Virus record (IMG/VR): IMGVR_UViG_3300013232_000047
Coordinates: 32,001-96,000 of that record
Strand: one strand, 5' to 3'
DNA length: 64,000 bases
Origin: a virus
Shown: in pieces, positions 3,001 to 33,342 of the stretch
Layout: each line of letters begins with the position of its first letter
How positions within the stretch are numbered: the stretch's first letter is position 1
Made by a program: the position numbers and the translations under genes
The notes under the pieces: model-generated
What the model was told of the DNA's origin: nothing
Database searches by the model: none
What the model saw: the letters and a program-made list of their open reading frames with translations, nothing else

Positions 3001-5658
3001 GCAGATAGAAGCAGCGTGTCCGGGGTTGACAACATCTTTTGCGAGTTATTCTACGGACAAGGAGAGTTTTTTCCGAAAAGCTTATCAAGCGTACATGAGT
3101 CTTTTGCAGCAGGCTTGGTTTTTGAAGGATATGTGTCAGATGCCGTTTACACGATTGAAGGAGGACAGAGGTGGTATGGAGGAAATTTCGTGGTCGATGA
3201 ACCGCCACGAGTTGGCACTGTCTCAAGAGCTATTGTCTTTGAATATTCCGAATTATCGGGAGTACGTATACAGTGGGAACAAACGAGCCGACTTTGGGCT
3301 GATTGGCACGAACATCCTGATAGAAGTGGACGGAGATTACCATGTAGAGGCTCAAGACAAAGTCAATACAAGCATAGCCGAGCATTTAGGCTATCAAGTA
3401 CTGCGCTTCACAACACGCCAAGTCCAATTCAAAATGTCGGCGGTGATTGCCGAAATACAGGGCGCTTTGAAGCAGTCATTCAGTGGCGTTCCGTTGGTGT
3501 CCAAGCGGTGTGGGACATTGAAGTTGAAGGCGACCACAGCTACTTAGCACAAGGTCTTTTTCATCATAACTCATGCCGGGACCCAAATTTGCAGCAGCTA
3601 CCTCGTGATGGGGAAGTTAAGAGCCTTTACATTTCTCGATTTGGGAAGCGTGGCTGCATGTATCAGGGCGATCTTTCACAAGTTGAGCTGCGTCTGATGG
3701 CATCGGCTTGCGGTGATCCGACCATGGTTAAGGCGTACTTTGACGAAACAGACCTTCACACGCTTACAACTAGCCGTATTTTTAACACGCCTTACGAGCA
3801 TTTTAGTAAGGACTACATGAAGTGGCTTCAGGAGAGGCATAGAGACAAGGAAGCCAAGGAATTGAGTCAAAAGCGTAACATTGGAAAGTGTGTCGATCCG
3901 TCTACACTGGTGTCTGTAAACGGTCGAATCACGCGTATCGGTGATATTCACGCAGGAAGGGAAGAAGATACGTTTTATCCGATGAGCGGCAGGCACGTAC
4001 AGACTCCGAACGGCACGCAGGAAATTAGAGAATTTTATTGTAGCGGCATAAAAGAAAGAGTGCTTGTATGCAGTTTACACGGGATTATCAGCTGTAGTCC
4101 AAATCACCGCTTTCAACTTGCCGACGGTAGTTTGATTCAAGCGTCTCTTTTGAAAAAGGGTATGCTGTTGGCTGATGGCCAATCCTTGGTATGCGAACAC
4201 GTAAAAGCTGGCGTGTTTTTCGACCCATTTGGCACTTCGCCTAAATCAAATGTGTTCCAGATAAATATAACTCCAGATTTAGCTTACGTTCTTGGTCTGT
4301 TTTATGGTGATGGATGCTCTAACCTCGGTGAAGTTTCTATCTGTACAGGTGGAACACCCGAGTTTTTTGAATGGCAGGACATCATTGCGGATTCAGTGAG
4401 AAGGGCTGGTTTTTATCCAAAAATTGACCGAACAGTTTGGAGTAGTGAGGTTAGTGGGCCAAAAGTAATTAAGACAGGACCCACGGTTGGGCAGGAGATT
4501 AACGGAGCTTACGGACTTGTTAACTTTGGATGCACTAGGGTTTCCGACTTATTTATTCAGCTTGGGGCTGTAGACGAGACACGTTTTCGACGGCGGACGC
4601 TTACTTTACCTGAATGGATGTTCAACGCTCCAGACGATGTAAAATTGGAGTTTATTGCCGGAGTGCTGGATACGGATGGCTATGTAAAAAAGGACGGTAG
4701 CGCCTCTATTTGTACAAAATCGTGGCGATTTGCCCAAGACTTAATGGTGCTTGTTGGAACACTCGGCATTGCCTGCACGGTTGCGCCGGACTGGAATAAA
4801 ACCTACGAGCGCTATTACTTTATAGTCCGTTTTGCTCGACGTGACTCACACTTGTTTGCAGATAAATTGCGTAATCCCGGCAAGCGTGGCAGGATTAAAC
4901 CGGTAGTGTTTAGGTACTCAAAACGTGTTAAAAATAGGGTGACCTTGGTAATGGAGCAGGAACCTTCAATGCTTGTAGAGATCGCTATTGATAGCCCACA
5001 TCTGTATACTCCTGAAGGACTTACAACTCATCAAACGGTAAACTTCTTAACAGGTTATGGAGGAGGAGCTTTTGGGCTTCAAAACGTGTTAGCAGCCAAG
5101 TCTATCTATTTGAGCATCGAGCAGTGCGAAGCTATTATTGAATCCTTTTTCGCGTCGTACCCTGCTCTCCAGCGGTTCCTGATGTATTACAAGCAATTCA
5201 TAGTGGAGCAGCACGTGGCTGTTTCTATTTTTGGACGTGTCAGGGTGTTTGAAGAAGTTCAAGGTGACGACCAAGAGGCTAAAGCCAAAGCGCTTCGGGC
5301 CGGGTGTAACCACGTTATTCAATCGACGGCTTCAGACATGATGCTTTTGGCACTTGTTGCCATCGAAGACATGATGAAAGAAGCGGACCTTGAATCCATT
5401 TTGGTATCAACAGTGCATGACTCTCTTTTGGTAGATTGTGTACAATCTGAATTGCCTGTGGTTCACGATATTGTGACAACTGTTTTGAATAATTTTCCAA
5501 CAGTGCTGCCTGCACTGCTTGGCGCTGATTTTGATACAAGCTGGCTTCTGGTCCCCTTCACGGGGGACTGTGAAGTAGGCTTGGATTATTTGAGTGCAAA
5601 GTCCATTCCAAAGGATAACATCGACTGGGACAAACTTCTGTATCCTAGCAATGAGTAG
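1..5658 (+). CDS. polA: Family A DNA polymerase with N-terminal uracil-DNA glycosylase-like domain, 3'-5' exonuclease and two inteins (probably 5'-truncated)
   Basis: Exo I YDTETTG; TRGGRL|SCRDPNLQQLP; motif A DLSQVELR; motif B KRNIGK|TVNFLTGYG; motif C TVHDSL; CxxC..C N-terminal UDG-4-like region; frame is open from base 1. Confidence 0.95.
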   Translation, partial: KAVRYDKFYRDVLLYWHGETLIEDVDTGKTRVPSALVTLFDPNNPLGAEPLQPGAASPICAKCKLFETGCKSPFMQPVGSETPLVTIICDSVTKNEDAKGQISIDGFPGWIAKIIHACREETGVSLDDIRWFPLTRCANAGKAKVDYKIKGNWCRYHLVDDLMRHPPKLIIPVGTASLGMLCHKSNAQDWQGKLLTYRGWPDDWLTDKRFVLPRPHPVDATKQITGHPVFGEVPSVRIPMMPIQSPRLVLLAMNKVVTARWKQILVNAMKLVKEGVKPKVYTRPWYRFTTDPDVAAEGLCEIINNPGMLLCYDTETTGLKPWSFHKLCTTKLPTPPAIVSMMFRWSDPKTGNSRSIGFPWDYEASPMKPYLKILGPLVYEALTKSKLIGHNLTFDVLYTFATLYQKWLVGWDNPEFNKKRDRWLCALADAAKFDTWHAAYTYMQRVGSLGLEIIAYDWAPELAGYEEDMVLLIELHKEAMHPGENKGGHYLNCDKKYWPTHVIPYVMGDVESCFLASGRLREKLKSTEGRRYNIPLARPGSPGRFRFYTPLSRAFVYESIMVPAAAVLMKIMGRGMTVDLKKLNQMETALPKTISDLRTKLKQETPAIGQWCEEQASLTPGWELDLENKGHLKDLLFNVLNLPVQRFTKNGKKFYGEDEKAWSENIESAVKKRFPDLAEVELTKKIREEWLEFAATDKFTLNRMAVDHESVRPLQDYRKVYKLYSTYVRPLRNITVVGLDKKARVKDPHLCSDACIHASFLMTGTRGGRLCVSGDTRLEVRVDGVKKVVVISDLWKHINQHVTVKTHCGRWQRIKRLYFKGYERMFEATTESGGTVKATAEHRVFSERGWQSLGVVAGQKLKLFVDLASATRTGFERTKFSEVGATKTNEFSADERNDFKACGFTELAGLPSVESGTSTVASGAFGRCSEGQRKWSENAVSSAARGQIGGFDQPWNTHRAHREGDENNAFFSRTEHSGVWVAEIGQRAGSCQSSDRVSTEADRSSVSGVDNIFCELFYGQGEFFPKSLSSVHESFAAGLVFEGYVSDAVYTIEGGQRWYGGNFVVDEPPRVGTVSRAIVFEYSELSGVRIQWEQTSRLWADWHEHPDRSGRRLPCRGSRQSQYKHSRAFRLSSTALHNTPSPIQNVGGDCRNTGRFEAVIQWRSVGVQAVWDIEVEGDHSYLAQGLFHHNSCRDPNLQQLPRDGEVKSLYISRFGKRGCMYQGDLSQVELRLMASACGDPTMVKAYFDETDLHTLTTSRIFNTPYEHFSKDYMKWLQERHRDKEAKELSQKRNIGKCVDPSTLVSVNGRITRIGDIHAGREEDTFYPMSGRHVQTPNGTQEIREFYCSGIKERVLVCSLHGIISCSPNHRFQLADGSLIQASLLKKGMLLADGQSLVCEHVKAGVFFDPFGTSPKSNVFQINITPDLAYVLGLFYGDGCSNLGEVSICTGGTPEFFEWQDIIADSVRRAGFYPKIDRTVWSSEVSGPKVIKTGPTVGQEINGAYGLVNFGCTRVSDLFIQLGAVDETRFRRRTLTLPEWMFNAPDDVKLEFIAGVLDTDGYVKKDGSASICTKSWRFAQDLMVLVGTLGIACTVAPDWNKTYERYYFIVRFARRDSHLFADKLRNPGKRGRIKPVVFRYSKRVKNRVTLVMEQEPSMLVEIAIDSPHLYTPEGLTTHQTVNFLTGYGGGAFGLQNVLAAKSIYLSIEQCEAIIESFFASYPALQRFLMYYKQFIVEQHVAVSIFGRVRVFEEVQGDDQEAKAKALRAGCNHVIQSTASDMMLLALVAIEDMMKEADLESILVSTVHDSLLVDCVQSELPVVHDIVTTVLNNFPTVLPALLGADFDTSWLLVPFTGDCEVGLDYLSAKSIPKDNIDWDKLLYPSNE
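2311..3570 (+). mobile_element. Intein 1 in polA (420 aa)
   Basis: Starts CVSGDT, block B TAEHRVF, ends VWDIEVEGDHSYLAQGLFHHN followed by Ser; removal restores GGRL-SCRDPNLQ. Confidence 0.93.
2402..3547 (+). CDS. Vsr/DUF559-like endonuclease overprinted in +1 frame inside intein 1 (true start uncertain, perhaps 2620-2680)
   Basis: YREY..RADFGLIGTNILIEVDGDYH..LGYQVLRFT motif, preceded by HTH-like IPIERIAKEM segment. Confidence 0.8.
   Translation: MLQSKHTVGDGSESNVCTSRVTSGCLKQLLKAAARLKQQPSTGFSVSEDGSLLGLLPDKSSSYSLIWHPQLGLVLNEQSFRRLALQKQMSFQQMSETISRRVALRSWRAYPQLKAELQRLHRARLADAQKGNENGRRMPSVALPEAKLEALISRGIPIERIAKEMKTTPFLVERNIQVYGLQKLGNAPVRARVLTEFQLKQIEAACPGLTTSFASYSTDKESFFRKAYQAYMSLLQQAWFLKDMCQMPFTRLKEDRGGMEEISWSMNRHELALSQELLSLNIPNYREYVYSGNKRADFGLIGTNILIEVDGDYHVEAQDKVNTSIAEHLGYQVLRFTTRQVQFKMSAVIAEIQGALKQSFSGVPLVSKRCGTLKLKATTAT
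3889..5034 (+). mobile_element. Intein 2 in polA (382 aa) with LAGLIDADG endonuclease and C-terminal Gln
   Basis: Starts CVDPST, block B SPNHRF, LAYVLGLFYGDG and FIAGVLDTDG motifs, ends TTHQ followed by Thr; removal restores motif B. Confidence 0.93.
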
Positions 5659-7748: not shown

Positions 7749-9743
7749 ATGCTCGAAATAAATACTCGTATAGTGGAACTCCGCAATCTCATTCGCCAGT
7801 ATGACTACTTCTACTACGTGGTGGATGTTCCTAAAGTTGAAGACCATATCTACGATAAGCTCTACAAGGAACTGCAGGATCTGGAGACTAAGTACCCTGA
7901 ATTCTCCGATGTGAATTCACCAACCAAACGCATCGGTGGCATAGGTTCAAGCGGCTTTATTAAAACCAAGCATGATCGGAGAATGCTTTCGCTTCAGAAC
8001 GTCTATAACGCAAAGGAAGTTTTGGACTATTTTGGCCAAGGTGAGGAGGGAGTCTTGGAGCCAAAAATTGATGGCTTATCATTGAAGCTTATCTACAAGG
8101 AAGGAGAGCTGTACAAGGCTGTTACGAGGGGTAACGGTGAATTCGGCGACGATGTTACAGAGAATGCCCGGACTATTGTCAGCATTCCGCTGGTGTTAAC
8201 CAGTCCTACTGATATCGAGGTTACAGGTGAGGTCTACATGACCTATTCCGTGTTCAACAGGCTGAACGAAGAGCTGGAGGCAGAAGCACTGGAACAGTTC
8301 GCTAACGCTCGCAACGCTGCAAGTGGAACACTGAAACTCAAAAGTTCGGCGGAAGTTGCCAAGCGTAATCTGTCCTTTGTTGCGCACGGTAGCGTTACGG
8401 AATTTACGGAAATTGAGACACAGATGGAGCTTATTAGCATGTTGGAAAACTTAGGTTTTCAGACGACGTTCATGCTGCCAGTGCTTTCATCGTGTCCTAC
8501 GGTGACTCGATTACTGACATTCGATAATGCGTACGATATTCAAAAAAGCATAGAGAATGCGGATATAAATCGGAAGTTTCTTAATTTGGCGACGGATGGT
8601 TTGGTATTCAAGCTTAACAACTTGAAAAAACAGCGTGAATTAGGCGAAGGCACAAAATCTCCTCTATGGGCTTGCGCTTACAAGTTTCCGCCAGAGCGAA
8701 AATCTACAACCCTTCTCGACGTTACCCTTCAGGTTGGCAAATCAAGTAAGATTACACCGGTCGCAGAACTGAAACCTGTCCTTTTAAGCGGGACCTTGGT
8801 TAAACGGGCGAGTCTTTGTAATCAGGACGAAATTAATCGTCTTGGTGCTAATATCGGTGATGAGGTCTATGTTGAGAAGTCGGCAGAAATTATTCCCAAG
8901 GTCATGGGGGTCGCGAATAAGGTAACGGGTGGTGTCTATAAAATGCCCGACGTCTGTCCCTGCTGCAGGACCAAGCTGGTGAATCCAAGCGGCAAAGTAG
9001 ACTGGTTCTGCCCTAACCGTGACTGCGATGATCAGGTGTACGCCCGGCTGCGCCACGCAACAGGTAAGGCTGCTCTCGATATGGACGGATTCGGAGCGTC
9101 TATGATCCGTGAACTGATGACGCATGGCGTTCGTAAACTTTCAGACATATTCTTGCTTGATAACCTCACTTTTCTAAAAAATTCGGCTCGTAAAAAGCTT
9201 TTGGAAGGGCGCATTGCAGCAAAGAAACAACCGTTTTGGCGACAGCTGCACGCGTTGGGCATCGAAGGCATTGGCCAGACAACTTGCCAAGAAATTGCTG
9301 CTCAGTGGACTTCCCTTATTTCAGTCTTCGATGAGCTTGACAGGTTCAAAGAATTGTTCGGCGAAGTAGCCTTTAATAGTTTCCTTGAATACTACGCGTG
9401 TGAGGAACAAGAGCTGAATACGCTAGAGGCGTGCGGACTCACGTTTGAGACGGAACGGAACGGTATAGGAAGGCTCGCTGGAAAAGTATTTGCCATCACC
9501 GGAACCTTGATGTCAGGCAGTCGCGATCAAGTGATGCGTCGCATTGAGGCTGCAGGTGGAATGGTGAAAGCCAATGTTAGCGCGAAGTGCCATTATCTGG
9601 TTCTAGGCACAGACGCTGGTGCAATCAAGCCGGGCAAAGCGGAGAAGCTGGGAGTACCTGTCATAACAGAAGAACATCTGTATGAGATGATAGGTGAAGC
9701 GATGCCGGTTGCTCCGGAAGTAGAACCAGAAAGGGAGTATTAA
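7749..9743 (+). CDS. ligA: NAD-dependent DNA ligase
   Basis: EPKIDG adenylation motif, TRGNG, NARNAASG, Cys4 zinc finger, HhH repeats, BRCT (FAITGTL). Confidence 0.97.
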   Translation: MLEINTRIVELRNLIRQYDYFYYVVDVPKVEDHIYDKLYKELQDLETKYPEFSDVNSPTKRIGGIGSSGFIKTKHDRRMLSLQNVYNAKEVLDYFGQGEEGVLEPKIDGLSLKLIYKEGELYKAVTRGNGEFGDDVTENARTIVSIPLVLTSPTDIEVTGEVYMTYSVFNRLNEELEAEALEQFANARNAASGTLKLKSSAEVAKRNLSFVAHGSVTEFTEIETQMELISMLENLGFQTTFMLPVLSSCPTVTRLLTFDNAYDIQKSIENADINRKFLNLATDGLVFKLNNLKKQRELGEGTKSPLWACAYKFPPERKSTTLLDVTLQVGKSSKITPVAELKPVLLSGTLVKRASLCNQDEINRLGANIGDEVYVEKSAEIIPKVMGVANKVTGGVYKMPDVCPCCRTKLVNPSGKVDWFCPNRDCDDQVYARLRHATGKAALDMDGFGASMIRELMTHGVRKLSDIFLLDNLTFLKNSARKKLLEGRIAAKKQPFWRQLHALGIEGIGQTTCQEIAAQWTSLISVFDELDRFKELFGEVAFNSFLEYYACEEQELNTLEACGLTFETERNGIGRLAGKVFAITGTLMSGSRDQVMRRIEAAGGMVKANVSAKCHYLVLGTDAGAIKPGKAEKLGVPVITEEHLYEMIGEAMPVAPEVEPEREY

Positions 9744-9746
9744 GTC

Positions 9747-10223
9747 ATGCCAACGGTAATATGTTCACATGAAGGCTGCGACGCAGTCTTTACCAAAGAA
9801 ACACAAAACAGTGCGAATCAAGCTCTGAGAATGCATATAGGGCGGACGCACGAAAAACGAATCATTATGTTAAAAAATAATAATATCGAGTATTCTCAAC
9901 GGTGCCTTAGCAACGCGGAAACAGATAAGATCGTCGCGTTCATTAACGAGCGTCGAACAAAGTTTCCAACTAAGCTGGCCTGTTTTCAAGCTGCGTTGGA
10001 GCATATTGGTGCGACTAAACGCATATCCGCTACATCCAGCACAGTTACGCGCTACTTTGATAAGGCTGATAAGCGTAATAGTGCTGATGTGCCTGCCAAA
10101 CGCAAGTACACCCGGCGTCAGATCCAGCCAGAGTCGCGTGAAGTTCGTGTGAACTTTTGTCCGAACTGTGGCTGTAACATTCACGCTGTCGCCACAGGGT
10201 TGGCGATGGATAAAATCGCTTAG
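9747..10223 (+). CDS. Hypothetical zinc-finger protein
   Basis: C2H2-like N-terminus; C-terminal FCPNCG. Confidence 0.65.
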   Translation: MPTVICSHEGCDAVFTKETQNSANQALRMHIGRTHEKRIIMLKNNNIEYSQRCLSNAETDKIVAFINERRTKFPTKLACFQAALEHIGATKRISATSSTVTRYFDKADKRNSADVPAKRKYTRRQIQPESREVRVNFCPNCGCNIHAVATGLAMDKIA

Positions 10224-10225
10224 CC

Positions 10226-10570
10226 ATGAGCACTACTAAAATTGAAAAAGCAGCACGCAAGCTCTGCACGCATACGGTTATCTTCACTGACATCACAGAC
10301 AAGCTGGTGGCTGTTCGGGCGATGCAGGGACGCACTACTGGAGCCATTGCGCACGAGTTCGGCCTCACAAAGTCAGAGGCTCAGTACCGTATAACTAAGG
10401 CGCAGAAAAGCCTGAATACGCGCTTCCGCGCTGACTACCGCAATGGAGAAGGAGAGCTAGCTGCGAAGATGCTTGCAGCGACTACCAACATTGCAAGGCA
10501 GGTCGTGGAAAAACAGATTGCTCCGAAGTTTATTCCTTTCGCTCGTTCAGGGGTGCCACGTACTCCTTGA
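10226..10570 (+). CDS. Small HTH-like protein
   Basis: TTGAIAHEFGLTKSEAQYRI resembles a helix-turn-helix. Confidence 0.55.
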   Translation: MSTTKIEKAARKLCTHTVIFTDITDKLVAVRAMQGRTTGAIAHEFGLTKSEAQYRITKAQKSLNTRFRADYRNGEGELAAKMLAATTNIARQVVEKQIAPKFIPFARSGVPRTP

Positions 10571-10668
10571 AAAAGATTCTTTAAAAAACTTGTAAAAAGT
10601 TCTTGCGCGATAGCGAGTGTATACAGTAACGTGTATCCACGGTCAGGCACTAACGCTCTGACCCAATA

Positions 10669-10803
10669 ATGACGACAATGAATTTAGCAGCGAACATTAA
10701 AGACCGGACAAGTATGAAGGGGTATCCCCTGCATAATTGGCAGGTGTTTGCTCCGTCATCGTTGTGTGTCCGTACGGAGGAACCAGTTGGGGTAGGCGGG
10801 TAG
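10669..10803 (+). CDS. Putative attenuator leader peptide (44 aa)
   Basis: MTTMNLAANIKDRTSMKGYPLHNWQVFAPSSLCVRTEEPVGVGG; last codons are complementary to the 5' arm of the downstream terminator. Confidence 0.7.
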   Translation: MTTMNLAANIKDRTSMKGYPLHNWQVFAPSSLCVRTEEPVGVGG

Positions 10804-10823
10804 GACACAGGAAAATACTTTCC

Positions 10824-10857
10824 AAAACCCGCTACCCGAAAGAGTAGCGGGTTTTTT
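10824..10857 (+). terminator. Intrinsic terminator of putative attenuator
   Basis: AAAACCCGCTAC-ccgaaaga-GTAGCGGGTTTTTT. Confidence 0.85.
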
Positions 10858-10985
10858 ATTTTCAGTTTATGCGCCGTAAGGCGACGAGAGCCGGGCCGAT
10901 AATCCGGTAAACAACCACCGTGAAGTAAACCTGTGGATGCTGAAAAGCAAATGGGTGTTTGTTCTTTAGTTAAGTTATACGATCC

Positions 10986-11285
10986 TTGCGCCGCAATCCA
11001 CATACTCTGGTGGACGGCGCAGGGGCCGTATTTACTTTTGTGAAACCAAGTATTGCAGCCGCAGCTATCCGTATAGGCGAACGAATTTTTGCTGGTAAAA
11101 CCCAGTTTGAGGCTGTCGGCAAGCTTGTCAGAACGCCCAATGTCAGTGCCGAGGAGAAAATCGAGATGCTACTAGCGGGCGAAGCCGGGTATGTTACCGA
11201 CGACGGCCAGTTCGTAAACACCGATGATGCTTACGAGATTTCGCGGCAAGCGGGTGTTGTTTCCAATGCGGGTGTAGCTCAATAG
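10986..11285 (+). CDS. Hypothetical phage protein (start uncertain)
   Basis: GYVTDDGQFV..DAY motif typical of small phage proteins; end overlaps tRNA-Gly. Confidence 0.5.
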   Translation: MRRNPHTLVDGAGAVFTFVKPSIAAAAIRIGERIFAGKTQFEAVGKLVRTPNVSAEEKIEMLLAGEAGYVTDDGQFVNTDDAYEISRQAGVVSNAGVAQ

Positions 11286-11341
11286 TAGAGCGCGTGCTTG
11301 CCAAGCACAGGACGACGGTGCGATACCGTTCACTCGCTCCA
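11268..11341 (+). tRNA. tRNA-Gly(GCC)
   Basis: Cloverleaf, loop TT-GCC-AA, encoded CCA. Confidence 0.9.
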
Positions 11342-11460
11342 ATTTTAGATCGTACGTTAAACCGGGAGTACTGCGATTAGCTATCGCAGGGTGGATGCGA
11401 AGGCCACACAGCTCAGGATCGGGGGTTGCAACCTCTGATCACTCTGGCCGGTCACTTTAT

Positions 11461-11536
11461 GGGGATATGGCGCGACAAGTAAGGCAGTTGCTTTGCAAGC
11501 AATTTCATGTGGGGGCGGTACCCACTATCTCCACCA
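11461..11536 (+). tRNA. tRNA-Ala(TGC)
   Basis: GGGGATA/TATCTCC acceptor with G3:U70, loop TT-TGC-AA, CCA. Confidence 0.85.
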
Positions 11537-12083
11537 CTGTTTTAGTAAGTGTAAACTTTCCTGTTTTGGTTAAAAAATGAAGTTCTAAATGACAGGTTGG
11601 GCACAGCACCTGTAGGTTTTTGGGTTTGTTATTTTTTCTATTTTTGTCTAGGTGGTGTACTTCTAGCACTTCTAAGTAACGGTTATATCCACATTTAGCA
11701 CATTTTGCACCATGCACGCGCAGTCCCACTTGTCTGTAAGCAGAGGCTCCTCCTTTAAAGTGCCGGAGAAGTTCTGGGTAATTTTCGGTACATTGTGCTT
11801 CGTCTCTGCATTTTCTGGAGCAAAAGTGTAATCCTGATTTGCTTAGACGTAGCCGTTTATTCGTTCGGTTAAAGTGTTTGCCACAAAGGCTGCATTCGAT
11901 TTGAACTTGTTTTTGGCTGTTTATTCCACTGCACTCTCTTGAACAGAATTTTTGAGCTAGAAAATGTTTTGGCACCCAAAAAGGTTTATCACAAATTTTA
12001 CAGCATTTTTGGTGCAGGTTTCTGGCTTTTCCATCGTAATCTTTAGACGTTTTAGCTTGCATCGTGTAGATATAACGTAGCAC
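11505..12083 (-). CDS. HNH homing endonuclease with zinc-finger repeats
   Basis: CxxC..FCSRxC repeats; CAKCG..LEVHHLDKNRKNNKPKNLQVLCPTCH. Confidence 0.9.
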   Translation of the reverse strand: MLRYIYTMQAKTSKDYDGKARNLHQKCCKICDKPFWVPKHFLAQKFCSRECSGINSQKQVQIECSLCGKHFNRTNKRLRLSKSGLHFCSRKCRDEAQCTENYPELLRHFKGGASAYRQVGLRVHGAKCAKCGYNRYLEVLEVHHLDKNRKNNKPKNLQVLCPTCHLELHFLTKTGKFTLTKTVVEIVGTAPT

Positions 12084-12184
12084 GCAAAGCCAGTCTTTTC
12101 CACCAATTTATGAGGTGGTAAACGTTAAAATAGTCGGTCGCAGGTGGAAATCCTGTTATCTCCACCATTTCGTGTAGTTAAGGC

Positions 12185-13252
12185 ATGGCAGCGATTATTC
12201 GATCCTACGGAAGGTCAGGCGTGAATCACATTCGTCCTGCGCCGGGAAGTTACTACCTTCGAGGTCCAGAGATTCGTGAGCCCTACATCCCACCGTATCC
12301 GCCACTTCCTGCACCTGTCGTGCCACCATCTCCGCCTTCAACGTTGCCCGTAGTCATTACAGGTGAAGTACGTTTGGAAGGTATTCCTTATGATTCTGCA
12401 GTGGTTGCCTTCAGTGGTTCCGGATCTGTGGTTACGGATTCTTTTGGAACTTATGTTGGAACGGTGAGCTATGGCTACACAGGCACATCTTCGCTTTCAG
12501 GCTTTGATTTGCCAGTGTATACGGTAACACCTTCTTATCGCAGCTATGCAGGTCTGTCTACGGATGTGGCAGGTCAGGACTTTGACGTTGACATCAACTT
12601 TCTCAATATTTCAGGAACCGTGACGGAGAATGGCACTGGATTTAGTGTTCCGATTACCAACGGTGCCGGGACGTGGGCAACGAGTTCAAATGGATCTTAC
12701 GGATACTACGTGCCGTATGGTTGGAGCGGATCAACTGTTCCTCTTTCTGGTAGCGGAACATTTTCTCCTGATTCGTATGTTTATGGTCCTGTTGGCATTG
12801 ATCATTCCAATCAGAATTTTGCATTCACAGCGTTTGCGCCTGTGCCGCCTACACCTTCTATTGTTGACTGGACATTCTACGGTCCCTACAGCCCGGCACC
12901 TGTGTCTAATGGGGACACCATGAATGAGGCTTTCATGACTGTGAACGCCGGTGCGTCATGGTTAACTGCAGGTCCTACTACCCATTCAGTTAAAAACGTA
13001 GGAGCGTCGCCGCTTACGATTACGGACGTTCAACTTGCGGGCACCGGCTGGACAATGGATCTGTGGGACTATACCAGCATGGTTCCGTTTGTTCCTCCTT
13101 CCGCGTTAAATGACATTCCTGCTGGAGCACCGTTCCTGTTTAATATCGTTTTGACAGCTTCTGGGACGGGCGGTTATTCGTCGGCAGTAGTCACGGTAAC
13201 GCATACAGGTTCTAACTCTCCTTATACTGTAAATCTTGAGCGCACAGCATGA
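12185..13252 (+). CDS. Beta-rich repeat protein, probable virion decoration protein; paralog of 23820-24488
   Basis: Repeats ISGTV..SNGSYG..YGWSGSTVP..GTFSP..NQNF; Gly/Ser/Thr rich. Confidence 0.7.
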   Translation: MAAIIRSYGRSGVNHIRPAPGSYYLRGPEIREPYIPPYPPLPAPVVPPSPPSTLPVVITGEVRLEGIPYDSAVVAFSGSGSVVTDSFGTYVGTVSYGYTGTSSLSGFDLPVYTVTPSYRSYAGLSTDVAGQDFDVDINFLNISGTVTENGTGFSVPITNGAGTWATSSNGSYGYYVPYGWSGSTVPLSGSGTFSPDSYVYGPVGIDHSNQNFAFTAFAPVPPTPSIVDWTFYGPYSPAPVSNGDTMNEAFMTVNAGASWLTAGPTTHSVKNVGASPLTITDVQLAGTGWTMDLWDYTSMVPFVPPSALNDIPAGAPFLFNIVLTASGTGGYSSAVVTVTHTGSNSPYTVNLERTA

Positions 13253-27644: not shown

Positions 27645-28088
27645 GGGGCCGTAATGGTTTCGATTTACGAAAACTTACGGTTATGACATGTCGAGGATGG
27701 CTATCGGCCTCGTTAAGTAGTAGCCACAAGTCAAATGCTGACAACAGTGATGACAATATCCTGAACATCGACAGTTTGCTGGCTCAAGCAGAGTCCATCG
27801 TGAATAACGCGGACGAAGTGTTGGCCCAGTTTCCTGTCGAACAGGAACTTGCTGCAGCCTGAAGTGCTGTAGGCGGTGCAGTGGAGACTCCTGCTATCCA
27901 TTGTATCGCTAAACTAGCAGGGAAGTGTTCTACCGAGCACAGTCGGTGGGCTTGTCGATAAAGCTTAATCGAATCCTGCAGTTACTTTTTAGCTATTTAA
28001 AGCCTGCAGGTATAAAAATAGAGAAGCATGTGTAAGTAACCGGCGAGAGGTCGTAAAGAAAGGGGTTCGACTCCCCTCGGCTCCACCA
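27645..28088 (+). ncRNA. ssrA: tmRNA
   Basis: GGGGCCG..TTCGA 5' end, G3:U70, 3' GGGGTTCGACTCCCCTCGGCTCCACCA; tag frame 27737-27862 ending LAAA*. Confidence 0.95.
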
Positions 28089-31956: not shown

Positions 31957-32413
31957 TTTCATAGTTCCAGACTCTGCTGTTTTCGGTTCCTTTTTTAGGG
32001 CTAACTTTTTCTCGGATTATTTCGTAAGAATACAGTTTGAGTGGCAACGACCATACGTGCGTTTTACATCTGTTGCAGTAGCAGCCGAACAGGACCCACG
32101 AAGGAGACCGGCGACGCCACACACCGCGTGGCTGATGAGGTGTAATGTAGCGAGGGTAAGTTATGATTTTGTCTAATTTGCTTTCGCAGTGAGCGCAAAT
32201 TAGTTTCTTTTTCTGACGTTCCAGCCATCCACGTTTCCAGAGGCGCTGGGCGGTTGAAACGCTGCGGTCGATGGCAGTGCCCACTTGTTCCCAGCTCTGA
32301 CCTCGTTCGCGAAGTTCACACATTAACTCCCAGCGCCGGGCTGAGTTTCTCCTAGCCCATGACCCGGCGTGTAATCGAAAAAGTTCGCGTTTGCTTACGA
32401 CATCTGCATTCAT
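31916..32413 (-). CDS. HTH and zinc-ribbon hypothetical protein
   Basis: GQSWEQVGTAIDRSVSTAQRL HTH; CAHC..CNRC; GTTCTTTAGTTAAG upstream. Confidence 0.65.
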   Translation of the reverse strand: MNADVVSKRELFRLHAGSWARRNSARRWELMCELRERGQSWEQVGTAIDRSVSTAQRLWKRGWLERQKKKLICAHCESKLDKIITYPRYITPHQPRGVWRRRSPSWVLFGCYCNRCKTHVWSLPLKLYSYEIIREKVSPKKGTENSRVWNYEMVPRHGNAPCSAR

Positions 32414-32454
32414 ACTTAACTAAAGAACAAACACCCCGCCGTTGCGCAATATTT

Positions 32455-33003: not shown

Positions 33004-33342
33004 CATGTAAACGTAAACACGCGCAAGTGGCACAAAAAGTCACTTGCGCGTTTCGTCTGTACACACTAGATTGTATACGTGGACATCAATGCAACATCTC
33101 GTGGTTGTCAGTGCGAGCTCTGCCACCCAAACTGGTATTTGGGATGGGATGGCGGCTTTACGCCTAATCAACCTGAAACTTTTCCTGTTTTAAAGCGGGA
33201 AGAGGAAGGGGACGAAGCGCTTGTTACCAGATCGGCTCAAATGAGTCCGGTAATGGCAAACTAAAAATCCGACCTCTTAGGCCGGGTGTGCTAGCAAGTG
33301 TGGGGGAACCTTTGTCTTTAAACTACCTTTGATAGTTAAGGC

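Follow-up and report, generated by a model that had tools for sequence, protein, structure and literature searches.

A leader reading frame with every amino acid ahead of a phage tRNA island: a candidate ribosome-dependent transcription attenuator

Organization of the leader element

The DNA analysed here (the window) comprised 64,000 nucleotides, positions 32,001 to 96,000 of the IMG/VR virus record IMGVR_UViG_3300013232_000047, which is 120 kb long and has an estimated completeness of 53%. Upstream of its transfer RNA (tRNA) island lies a leader element made up of a promoter-like block, a 5′ hairpin, a short open reading frame (ORF) that contains all 20 amino acids, and an intrinsic terminator whose 5′ arm can alternatively pair with the end of the ORF (Table 1). 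An earlier note, made from the letters of this DNA alone, had read the arrangement as an attenuator that senses the depletion of almost any tRNA. Comparison with relatives supported this general-sensor reading: the parts of the element, the co-varying alternative pairings, apparent selection for an open frame, the retention of all 20 amino acids and the co-occurrence with tRNA arrays all emerged from it.

The ORF at 10669–10803 has 44 sense codons covering 20 amino-acid types with 37 different codons, including four Val codons and three each for Pro, Leu, Ser, and Ala, and the codon count thus confirmed the composition reported in the note. The start kept in relatives is the ATG at 10678; counted from there, the ORF has 41 codons and loses none of its 20 amino acids or 37 different codons. 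Only the window has the ATG at 10669. Its TAATG overlap with a short GTG-initiated ORF (10631–10669), proposed earlier as translational coupling, does exist in the window but is not conserved, having no aligned counterpart in the 15 other alignment rows, and the GTG itself aligned in approximately half of 12 rows (judged by eye).

The 12-base strand at 10790–10801 is complementary to 10827–10837 with one bulged G, as had been described, and it ends on the T of the TAG stop. Ten pairs between this antiterminator strand and the terminator arm were present in the minimum-energy fold of a transcript cut before the 3′ arm of the terminator, and approximately 25 bases separate the strand from its partner. 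The strong terminator was likewise found where it had been placed (10824–10855 in the window; 12 pairs, of which six are G-C, an 8-base loop and a T run) and is conserved in relatives. As a whole, the segment 10620–10865 folded better than all but one of 200 shuffles (z = −4.5). Contrary to the earlier note, the tRNA array does not start right after the terminator: the first tRNA begins at 11268, 411 bases further on, with a structured RNA, a hairpin and an 81-codon ORF in between.

Table 1. Features at and around the leader element (coordinates of the window).
Feature	Coordinates	Strand	Basis or remark
Upstream gene, 114 amino acids, weak helix-turn-helix matches	10226–10570	+	Context; possible regulator of the leader promoter
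Promoter-like block	10583–10630	+	Columns invariant or near-invariant in 16 alignment rows
5′ hairpin of the leader transcript	10641–10663	+	Minimum-energy fold; RNAalifold
Leader ORF, 41 codons and TAG stop	10678–10803	+	Conserved start; frame-preserving gaps
Helix a (10746–10756 with 10774–10783), within the ORF	10746–10783	+	Column pairing counts; partial-transcript folds
Helix b (10765–10771 with 10803–10809), encloses ORF end and stop	10765–10809	+	Duplex energies
Antiterminator strand, last four codons and first base of the stop	10790–10801	+	Pairs with 10827–10837
Intrinsic terminator	10824–10857	+	Terminator prediction and covariation
Post-terminator conserved structured RNA	10858–10975	+	Alignment; RNAalifold
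Second conserved hairpin	10984–11025	+	Alignment; RNAalifold; coordinates from the window sequence
81-codon ORF, overlaps the start of tRNA-Gly	11040–11285	+	Homologues at the same place in relatives
tRNA-Gly (GCC), first gene of the tRNA island, which reaches approximately 32000	11268–11341	+	tRNA and Rfam searches

Relatives of the leader

The 114-residue protein encoded upstream of the leader had 38 homologues in metagenomes, and a profile of these fetched 36 loci (2 viral and 34 metagenome loci, designated by L numbers). Leader DNA was recognizable downstream of most of them, with 67–84% identity where it matched. A covariance model built on helix b and the terminator detected the element not only in the window but also in 24 of these loci (E ≤ 2.8e-7), and found no leader in L002, L003, L021, L022, L031, and L034–L036, nor in four loci that were too short. 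Searching with a 15-base pattern from the post-terminator RNA returned 33 viral loci, two of which (L061 and L065) contained the leader, while the rest looked like chance matches. Searches of isolated phages for relatives gave tRNA matches or nothing, and scanning viral contigs with single proteins and exact patterns gave no relatives.

After removal of duplicates, 17 sequences were compared for structure and 16 for peptide. The promoter-like block with the 5′ hairpin, the ORF, a stop codon at the antiterminator strand, and the terminator were kept in all 17 distinct copies. A metatranscriptome contig matched one relative, apparently running from the end of the leader ORF through the terminator to tRNA-Gly; it could derive from DNA, contigs do not reveal where transcripts end, and no inference was drawn from it. 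No RNA run was listed among the sequencing runs that contain this phage. One DNA contig ending at position 10857 was given no weight.

A probable terminator/antiterminator switch

Base pairs were counted on an alignment whose fitting had used helix b and the terminator alone and not the antiterminator. Nevertheless, homologous leaders kept the antiterminator pairing, as the earlier note had expected: 91.4% of cells were paired over its 11 pairs, three of which had changed on both sides. The corresponding figures were 90.6% for the terminator (14 pairs, six changed on both sides) and 93.3% for helix a (11 pairs, one changed on both sides), and the whole structure was 88.4% paired vs. 39.5–53.5% in slid controls. 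Duplexes of the antiterminator strand with the terminator arm of the same sequence had a mean energy of −21.2 kcal/mol, compared to −11.3 kcal/mol (standard deviation 3.1) after shuffling and −17.5 kcal/mol with foreign arms. Each of the five most divergent variants (L004, L007, L020, L033, and L061) paired best with its own arm; L020, L004, L033, and L061 have distinct antiterminator strands that each fit their own terminator arm, and the strand of L033, different in sequence, spans its TGA stop. The stop codon lay within or abutted the antiterminator strand in 17 of 17 sequences, from which we infer that the footprint of a terminating ribosome covers this strand.

Folding of alternative structures was consistent with this arrangement. 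For transcripts truncated at the terminator loop, the minimum-energy structure consisted of helix a together with the antiterminator in 15 of the 17 sequences; the structure of L033 also shows both elements, and that of L005 does not. When the 3′ arm of the terminator was added, the terminator formed in 14. The two pairings are, by this analysis, mutually exclusive and appear to constitute a switch. On the model suggested by these folds, the antiterminator would form first as long as no ribosome occupies the last codons, and would be blocked once a ribosome sits at the ORF's end or on its stop. Helix b was present in 17 of 17 sequences with a mean duplex energy of −13.5 kcal/mol vs. −6.6 kcal/mol (standard deviation 2.5) for a shuffled 3′ arm; its columns were 75% paired, a figure lowered by register shifts. 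A role as pause hairpin was considered for a small hairpin at 10719–10729, as was an H-type pseudoknot between helix b and the antiterminator.

Open frame of the leader and type of constraint

Gap blocks were counted on a nucleotide alignment that was blind to codons. Within the ORF, 9 of 9 were multiples of three, vs. 3 of 15 upstream of it (promoter and 5′ untranslated region) and 2 of 12 from the stop to the end of the terminator. The start and stop codons were retained in every copy, and the ORF was found in 16 of 16 alignment rows as well as in L025, L033, and L061; it is 39–46 codons long and begins where the window has its second ATG. Taken from the alignment, these patterns indicate that the ORF is under selection for an open frame and it is presumably translated. 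The start context is A-rich and without a Shine-Dalgarno motif, resembling the phage's own genes: the fraction of A at positions −12 to −1 was 0.51 in the leaders vs. 0.34 in phage genes, and a Shine-Dalgarno-like motif preceded 6 of 72 long phage ORFs.

Across 13 genomes, the constraint on the leader was compared with that on the upstream gene. Amino-acid identity was nearly the same (0.66 for the leader ORF, 0.67 for the upstream gene), and at sites with the same residue an identical codon was used in 0.83 of cases in the leader vs. 0.51 in the upstream gene. Likewise, the ratio of third-position to first-and-second-position divergence (1.24 vs. 2.34), the synonymous divergence dS (0.52 vs. 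1.47) and dN/dS (0.43 vs. 0.16) set the leader apart, and its conservation, as judged from these substitutions, appears to be mostly at the RNA level. The 41-residue product matched no Pfam or PHROG family, and a profile search of 5.8 billion proteins with the leader peptide gave one match. The combination of an open frame with mainly RNA-type constraint therefore favors a regulatory leader ORF over a small functional protein. The expectation that the peptide sequence would be free to vary among homologues did not hold, as it was 61–66% identical across relatives; because synonymous sites were equally constrained, this conservation lies at the nucleotide level and does not point to a functional protein.

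Amino-acid completeness of the leader ORF

All 20 amino acids were present in 13 of 16 distinct leaders, and in 12 of 16 they had all appeared before the last five codons. In the window the set is complete within the first 36 codons from the conserved start. Such completeness is rare among stretches of the same length, both in this genome and in random codon strings. Among stretches taken from the genome's long ORFs, all 20 amino acids occurred in 74 of 5627 (1.3%) at 44 codons, 39 of 5686 (0.7%) at 41 codons, and 4 of 5783 (0.07%) at 36 codons, with 1.8, 1.0, and 0.27%, respectively, in random codon strings. Of the window's own ORFs of 40–48 codons, 2 of 106 contained all 20.

Completeness also appeared to be maintained as the leaders diverged, which agreed with the anticipated diversity of homologous leaders. 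Eight of 11 lineage representatives were complete, vs. 2.7 (standard deviation 1.2) expected by column permutation (P ~5e-5) and 1.9 expected by a resampling that started from a relative with all 20 amino acids and redrew only the positions that differed (P ~4e-5); both null models are imperfect because the sequences are related. Residues present in a single copy were relocated rather than lost: Trp was always present in one of two columns, Phe had moved in L027, L028, and L025, and Asp switched between two sites. There were no runs of one codon in the leader, and Ala accounted for 3 of 41 codons.

Association with tRNA genes

In 15 of 15 lineages with sufficient downstream DNA, the leader was followed by tRNA-Gly (GCC), usually with tRNA-Ala after it, and three lineages with the upstream gene but without the leader were also without a tRNA. 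In L016/L017 the batch ARAGORN run detected no tRNA, whereas Rfam detected two (4725–4795 and 4920–4992 in L017), and a blank from the batch ARAGORN call was hence not treated as reliable.

Proposed mechanism

From sequence comparison, we propose with a probability of roughly 60% that the element is a ribosome-dependent transcription attenuator of the whiB7 upstream ORF (uORF) type, which heads the phage tRNA island and gauges overall decoding. The promoter-like block would start a transcript carrying the 5′ hairpin, the A-rich start region lacking a Shine-Dalgarno motif and the 41-codon ORF, whose last four codons and stop would provide the 5′ strand of the antiterminator, with the 5′ arm of the terminator as its partner. 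A ribosome keeping pace with the polymerase would be on the last codons or the stop while the terminator is being made and would cover the antiterminator strand, upon which the terminator hairpin would form and the transcript would end at approximately 10857. Should the ribosome instead fall behind somewhere in the first 36 or so codons, the antiterminator would form first, together with helix a, and the polymerase would continue into the conserved RNA downstream and on through the small ORF to the tRNAs; read-through would probably be the default state in the absence of a ribosome. Since the ORF contains every amino acid, mostly once or twice, lack of almost any charged tRNA, or a general slowing of translation, should raise read-through, and this would presumably be the physiological trigger.

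A more specific version, which we put forward only tentatively, is that the ORF serves as a pan-codon test gene that puts the phage's own translation apparatus under feedback control: loss of any host tRNA, for example to anticodon nucleases, would open the terminator and restored decoding would shut it, with the post-terminator RNA and the second hairpin acting as a further checkpoint in series. It is possible, again as a speculative step, that the island then transcribed would deliver more than 25 tRNAs and the transfer-messenger RNA (tmRNA).

To our knowledge, how the expression of phage tRNA genes is controlled is largely unknown. If the proposed mechanism is correct, tRNA supply would be under demand-driven control by a leader ORF that samples every amino acid, leader-peptide attenuation would extend from amino-acid synthesis to the decoding machinery, and the element would be a naturally occurring, compact sensor that reports how fast the codons of all 20 amino acids are decoded. 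Because members of the family are conserved in many uncultured phages of freshwater and sediment, such control would be widespread rather than an oddity. Phage tRNA genes are usually regarded as codon supplements or as spares against tRNA-cleaving defences (PMC10264068).

Several observations weigh against the attenuator as described. The set is incomplete in three of 16 leaders, with Asp missing from L012, His from L033, and both His and Val from L004, and the relatedness of the sequences can inflate both composition tests. A stall in the last approximately five codons would favor termination and not read-through. The synonymous conservation spans the whole ORF, beyond what helices a to d explain, which raises the possibility that a protein or ligand binds the RNA as well. 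Helix b, although it shows covariation, encloses the antiterminator strand without pairing with it; it could act after release of the ribosome, or stack on the antiterminator in a pseudoknot-like manner. A structured RNA, a second hairpin and a recurrent motif that precedes genes lie between the terminator and the first tRNA, and the tRNAs may accordingly have further controls or a promoter of their own. A scan for the sigma-70 consensus did not match the conserved promoter-like block. Finally, matching the leader codons to the phage tRNAs was uninformative, as 37 of 41 codons were decodable vs. a background of 84% with a lax ARAGORN list that contained many doubtful calls and covered 59 of 61 codons.

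Alternative explanations

We initially leaned towards a plain terminator at the end of an operon, an explanation that was abandoned after the comparative results. An unlikely alternative is a real terminator/antiterminator switch that is set by a bound factor (the helix-turn-helix protein, another phage protein, a ligand, or a tRNA), with translation being secondary. It would account for the ORF-wide conservation of synonymous sites, for invariant sequence blocks outside helices a to d, and for the second conserved multi-helix RNA with a terminator-like hairpin just downstream, and the small DNA-binding-like gene is syntenic even in the locus fetched by another route. However, the frame-preserving indels and the conserved start and stop point to selection for translation, the stop always overlaps or abuts the antiterminator strand, no Rfam riboswitch or T-box matched, and the retained composition of all 20 amino acids would be left without a role. 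That composition is also what speaks against a switch reporting only ribosome availability or coupling (host shut-off, infection stage, or inhibitors), in which completeness would be an inherited by-product. The folds imply that any delay, slow initiation included, gives read-through, the three incomplete leaders still keep the switch, and relatedness may have inflated the composition results; yet the number of complete lineages exceeded expectation even when resampling started from a complete relative, single-copy residues relocate, and most leaders are complete ahead of their last five codons. We consider this explanation improbable.

The remaining alternatives deny the switch or the reading frame. 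That the ORF encodes a functional small protein in a unit with its own promoter and terminator, the complementarity serving the structure or stability of the 3′ end of its mRNA, was judged very unlikely. The peptide identity and the promoter-like and terminator signals of the unit fit this explanation, but the codon-position and dN/dS ratios differ from those of the neighboring gene, C-terminal residues change along with the RNA pairing, protein families and matches are nearly absent as described above, and mutually exclusive antiterminator and terminator pairings suggest a switch and not a stabilizer. Least credible was the view that the ORF is incidental and the segment either a small RNA without coding function or just the 3′-terminal part of the upstream operon. 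The strong fold and the RNA-level conservation are compatible with it, whereas all 9 indels within the ORF are frame-preserving, vs. 5 of 27 outside it, start and stop are conserved in every copy, and a conserved promoter-like block separates the upstream gene from the ORF.

Comparison with known systems

Among the papers listed by literature searches, there was no account of leader-peptide attenuation of tRNA genes. Of published systems, the whiB7 uORF attenuator comes closest. According to the report on it, the uORF of Mycobacterium smegmatis encodes all amino acids except cysteine and is activated by many amino-acid starvations, with screen hits for 18 of 20 amino acids; removal of its Trp or His codons abolishes the matching response, and the uORF, which is enriched in alanine, is highly variable in both its sequence and its length (PMC10274678). 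Both systems have a leader ORF of mixed composition before a terminator, stalling is taken to favor the antiterminator, and the logic is that of a sensor for many amino acids. In contrast, whiB7 is a transcription factor of Actinobacteria, whereas the genes here are phage tRNAs, and there is no sequence relation; the leader described here is 39–46 codons long, contains most residues once or twice, and has kept completeness itself. The phage element thus functions, in the mechanism proposed, like the whiB7/wblC family but is not a member of it.

Classical attenuators include trpL, hisL, pheL, and leuL, as well as the multivalent thr and ilv leaders. The phage element shares with them a short leader ORF, an intrinsic terminator, an antiterminator formed from the 5′ arm of the terminator and, by inference here, masking of the antiterminator strand by a ribosome at the stop. 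It differs from them in that they carry runs of a single codon and regulate biosynthetic enzymes, neither of which was found here, where tRNAs would be regulated. In the trp system an untranslated leader leads to termination via the 1:2 hairpin, whereas the folds obtained here predict read-through without a ribosome. The pyrBI leader of E. coli is an ORF of approximately 44 codons that gauges the coupling of ribosome and polymerase; it runs through the terminator, which is blocked directly by the ribosome, and pausing dependent on uridine triphosphate provides the signal. The phage ORF, in contrast, ends ahead of the terminator, and its leader has a distinct antiterminator.

In Rfam searches of positions 9500–12500 of the window, no family reached its gathering threshold over the leader: there was a Trp_leader score of 21.9 bits (threshold 41), in a match mostly to the terminator, and a Thr_leader score of 18.7 bits (threshold 55) on the other strand. 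The T-box covariance model gave no hit at E up to 10 in the same segment or in positions 3840–4420 of L005. A general description of leader-peptide attenuators is found in PMC1183508.

Two further systems share part of the logic. The toiL uORF of E. coli topAI-yjhQ has been studied with antibiotics and acts through access to the ribosome-binding site and Rho-dependent termination (PMC12121999). It resembles the phage leader as proposed here in that a single leader ORF responds to many translation stresses and stalls at different positions refold the downstream RNA, and differs in that an intrinsic terminator and a co-varying antiterminator are found here. The trn tRNA operon of Anabaena PCC 7120 is expressed at a low level and induced when translation is impaired (PMC8421152, PMC10272220); it lies on a cyanobacterial megaplasmid and is described as controlled by promoter repeats and the repressor TrcR (PMC8421152). 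The main text of that source contains no occurrence of leader, attenuat-, or terminator. Both systems are accessory arrays of many tRNAs, and the present one, which lies in a phage, would likewise be expressed at a low level until translation is impaired.

Post-terminator RNA and the tRNA island

The RNA that follows the terminator contains many invariant alignment columns; the form found in relatives is longer, with an extra hairpin, and in L005 the region corresponds to 4148–4337. In most relatives, a T run comes after the second hairpin and immediately precedes tRNA-Gly. RNAalifold on eight relatives, covering the post-terminator RNA and the second hairpin, gave 52 pairs, of which 13 had changed on both sides, and the post-terminator RNA matched no Rfam family. 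It could be a second regulatory stage or a small RNA. The 81-codon ORF overlaps tRNA-Gly by 18 bases and has homologues at the same place in L012, L016/17, L018, L033, and L061/65; its 81-residue product matched no Pfam family.

ARAGORN detected 24 tRNAs between 11268 and 31789. Rfam added a tRNA at 11461–11533 (+ strand) with the anticodon UGC (Ala), which was missed by ARAGORN at default settings and found at relaxed settings; an ORF for an HNH endonuclease (11505–12083, − strand) overlaps the 3′ end of this tRNA-Ala. The island also contains a tmRNA gene (27645–28088, + strand; 107 bits in Rfam vs. a threshold of 47).

Promoter-like block, upstream gene and recurrent motifs

The promoter-like block consists, in order, of an A-rich stretch, a GTTCTTGC box, approximately 10 variable bases, and a TGTATACAGTA box, and it may function as the promoter of the leader. 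For the 5′ hairpin, RNAalifold on 12 rows gave nine pairs, six of which had changed on both sides. The 114-residue protein matched Pfam HTH_10 and MarR_2, both below threshold. Its gene was always immediately upstream of the leader; a copy with 41% identity is encoded there even in L061/L065 (186–482 in L061), which had been fetched via another motif, and the protein may regulate the leader promoter.

The heptamer TGTATAC occurred 33 times in the window (e.g., at 10618, 33815, 34832, and 40975) vs. 3.9 times expected from shuffles. Many copies form the palindrome TGTATACA; some lie 13 bases past a TTGAC box before genes, and many lie within genes. In place of a Shine-Dalgarno sequence, many genes have a GTTCTTT and/or TAGTTAAGG motif 1–14 bases before the start, as at 12170–12184, 32414–32440 (minus strand), and 33328–33342. 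Both the promoter-like block of the leader and the 3′ end of the post-terminator RNA also contain a GTTCTT box.

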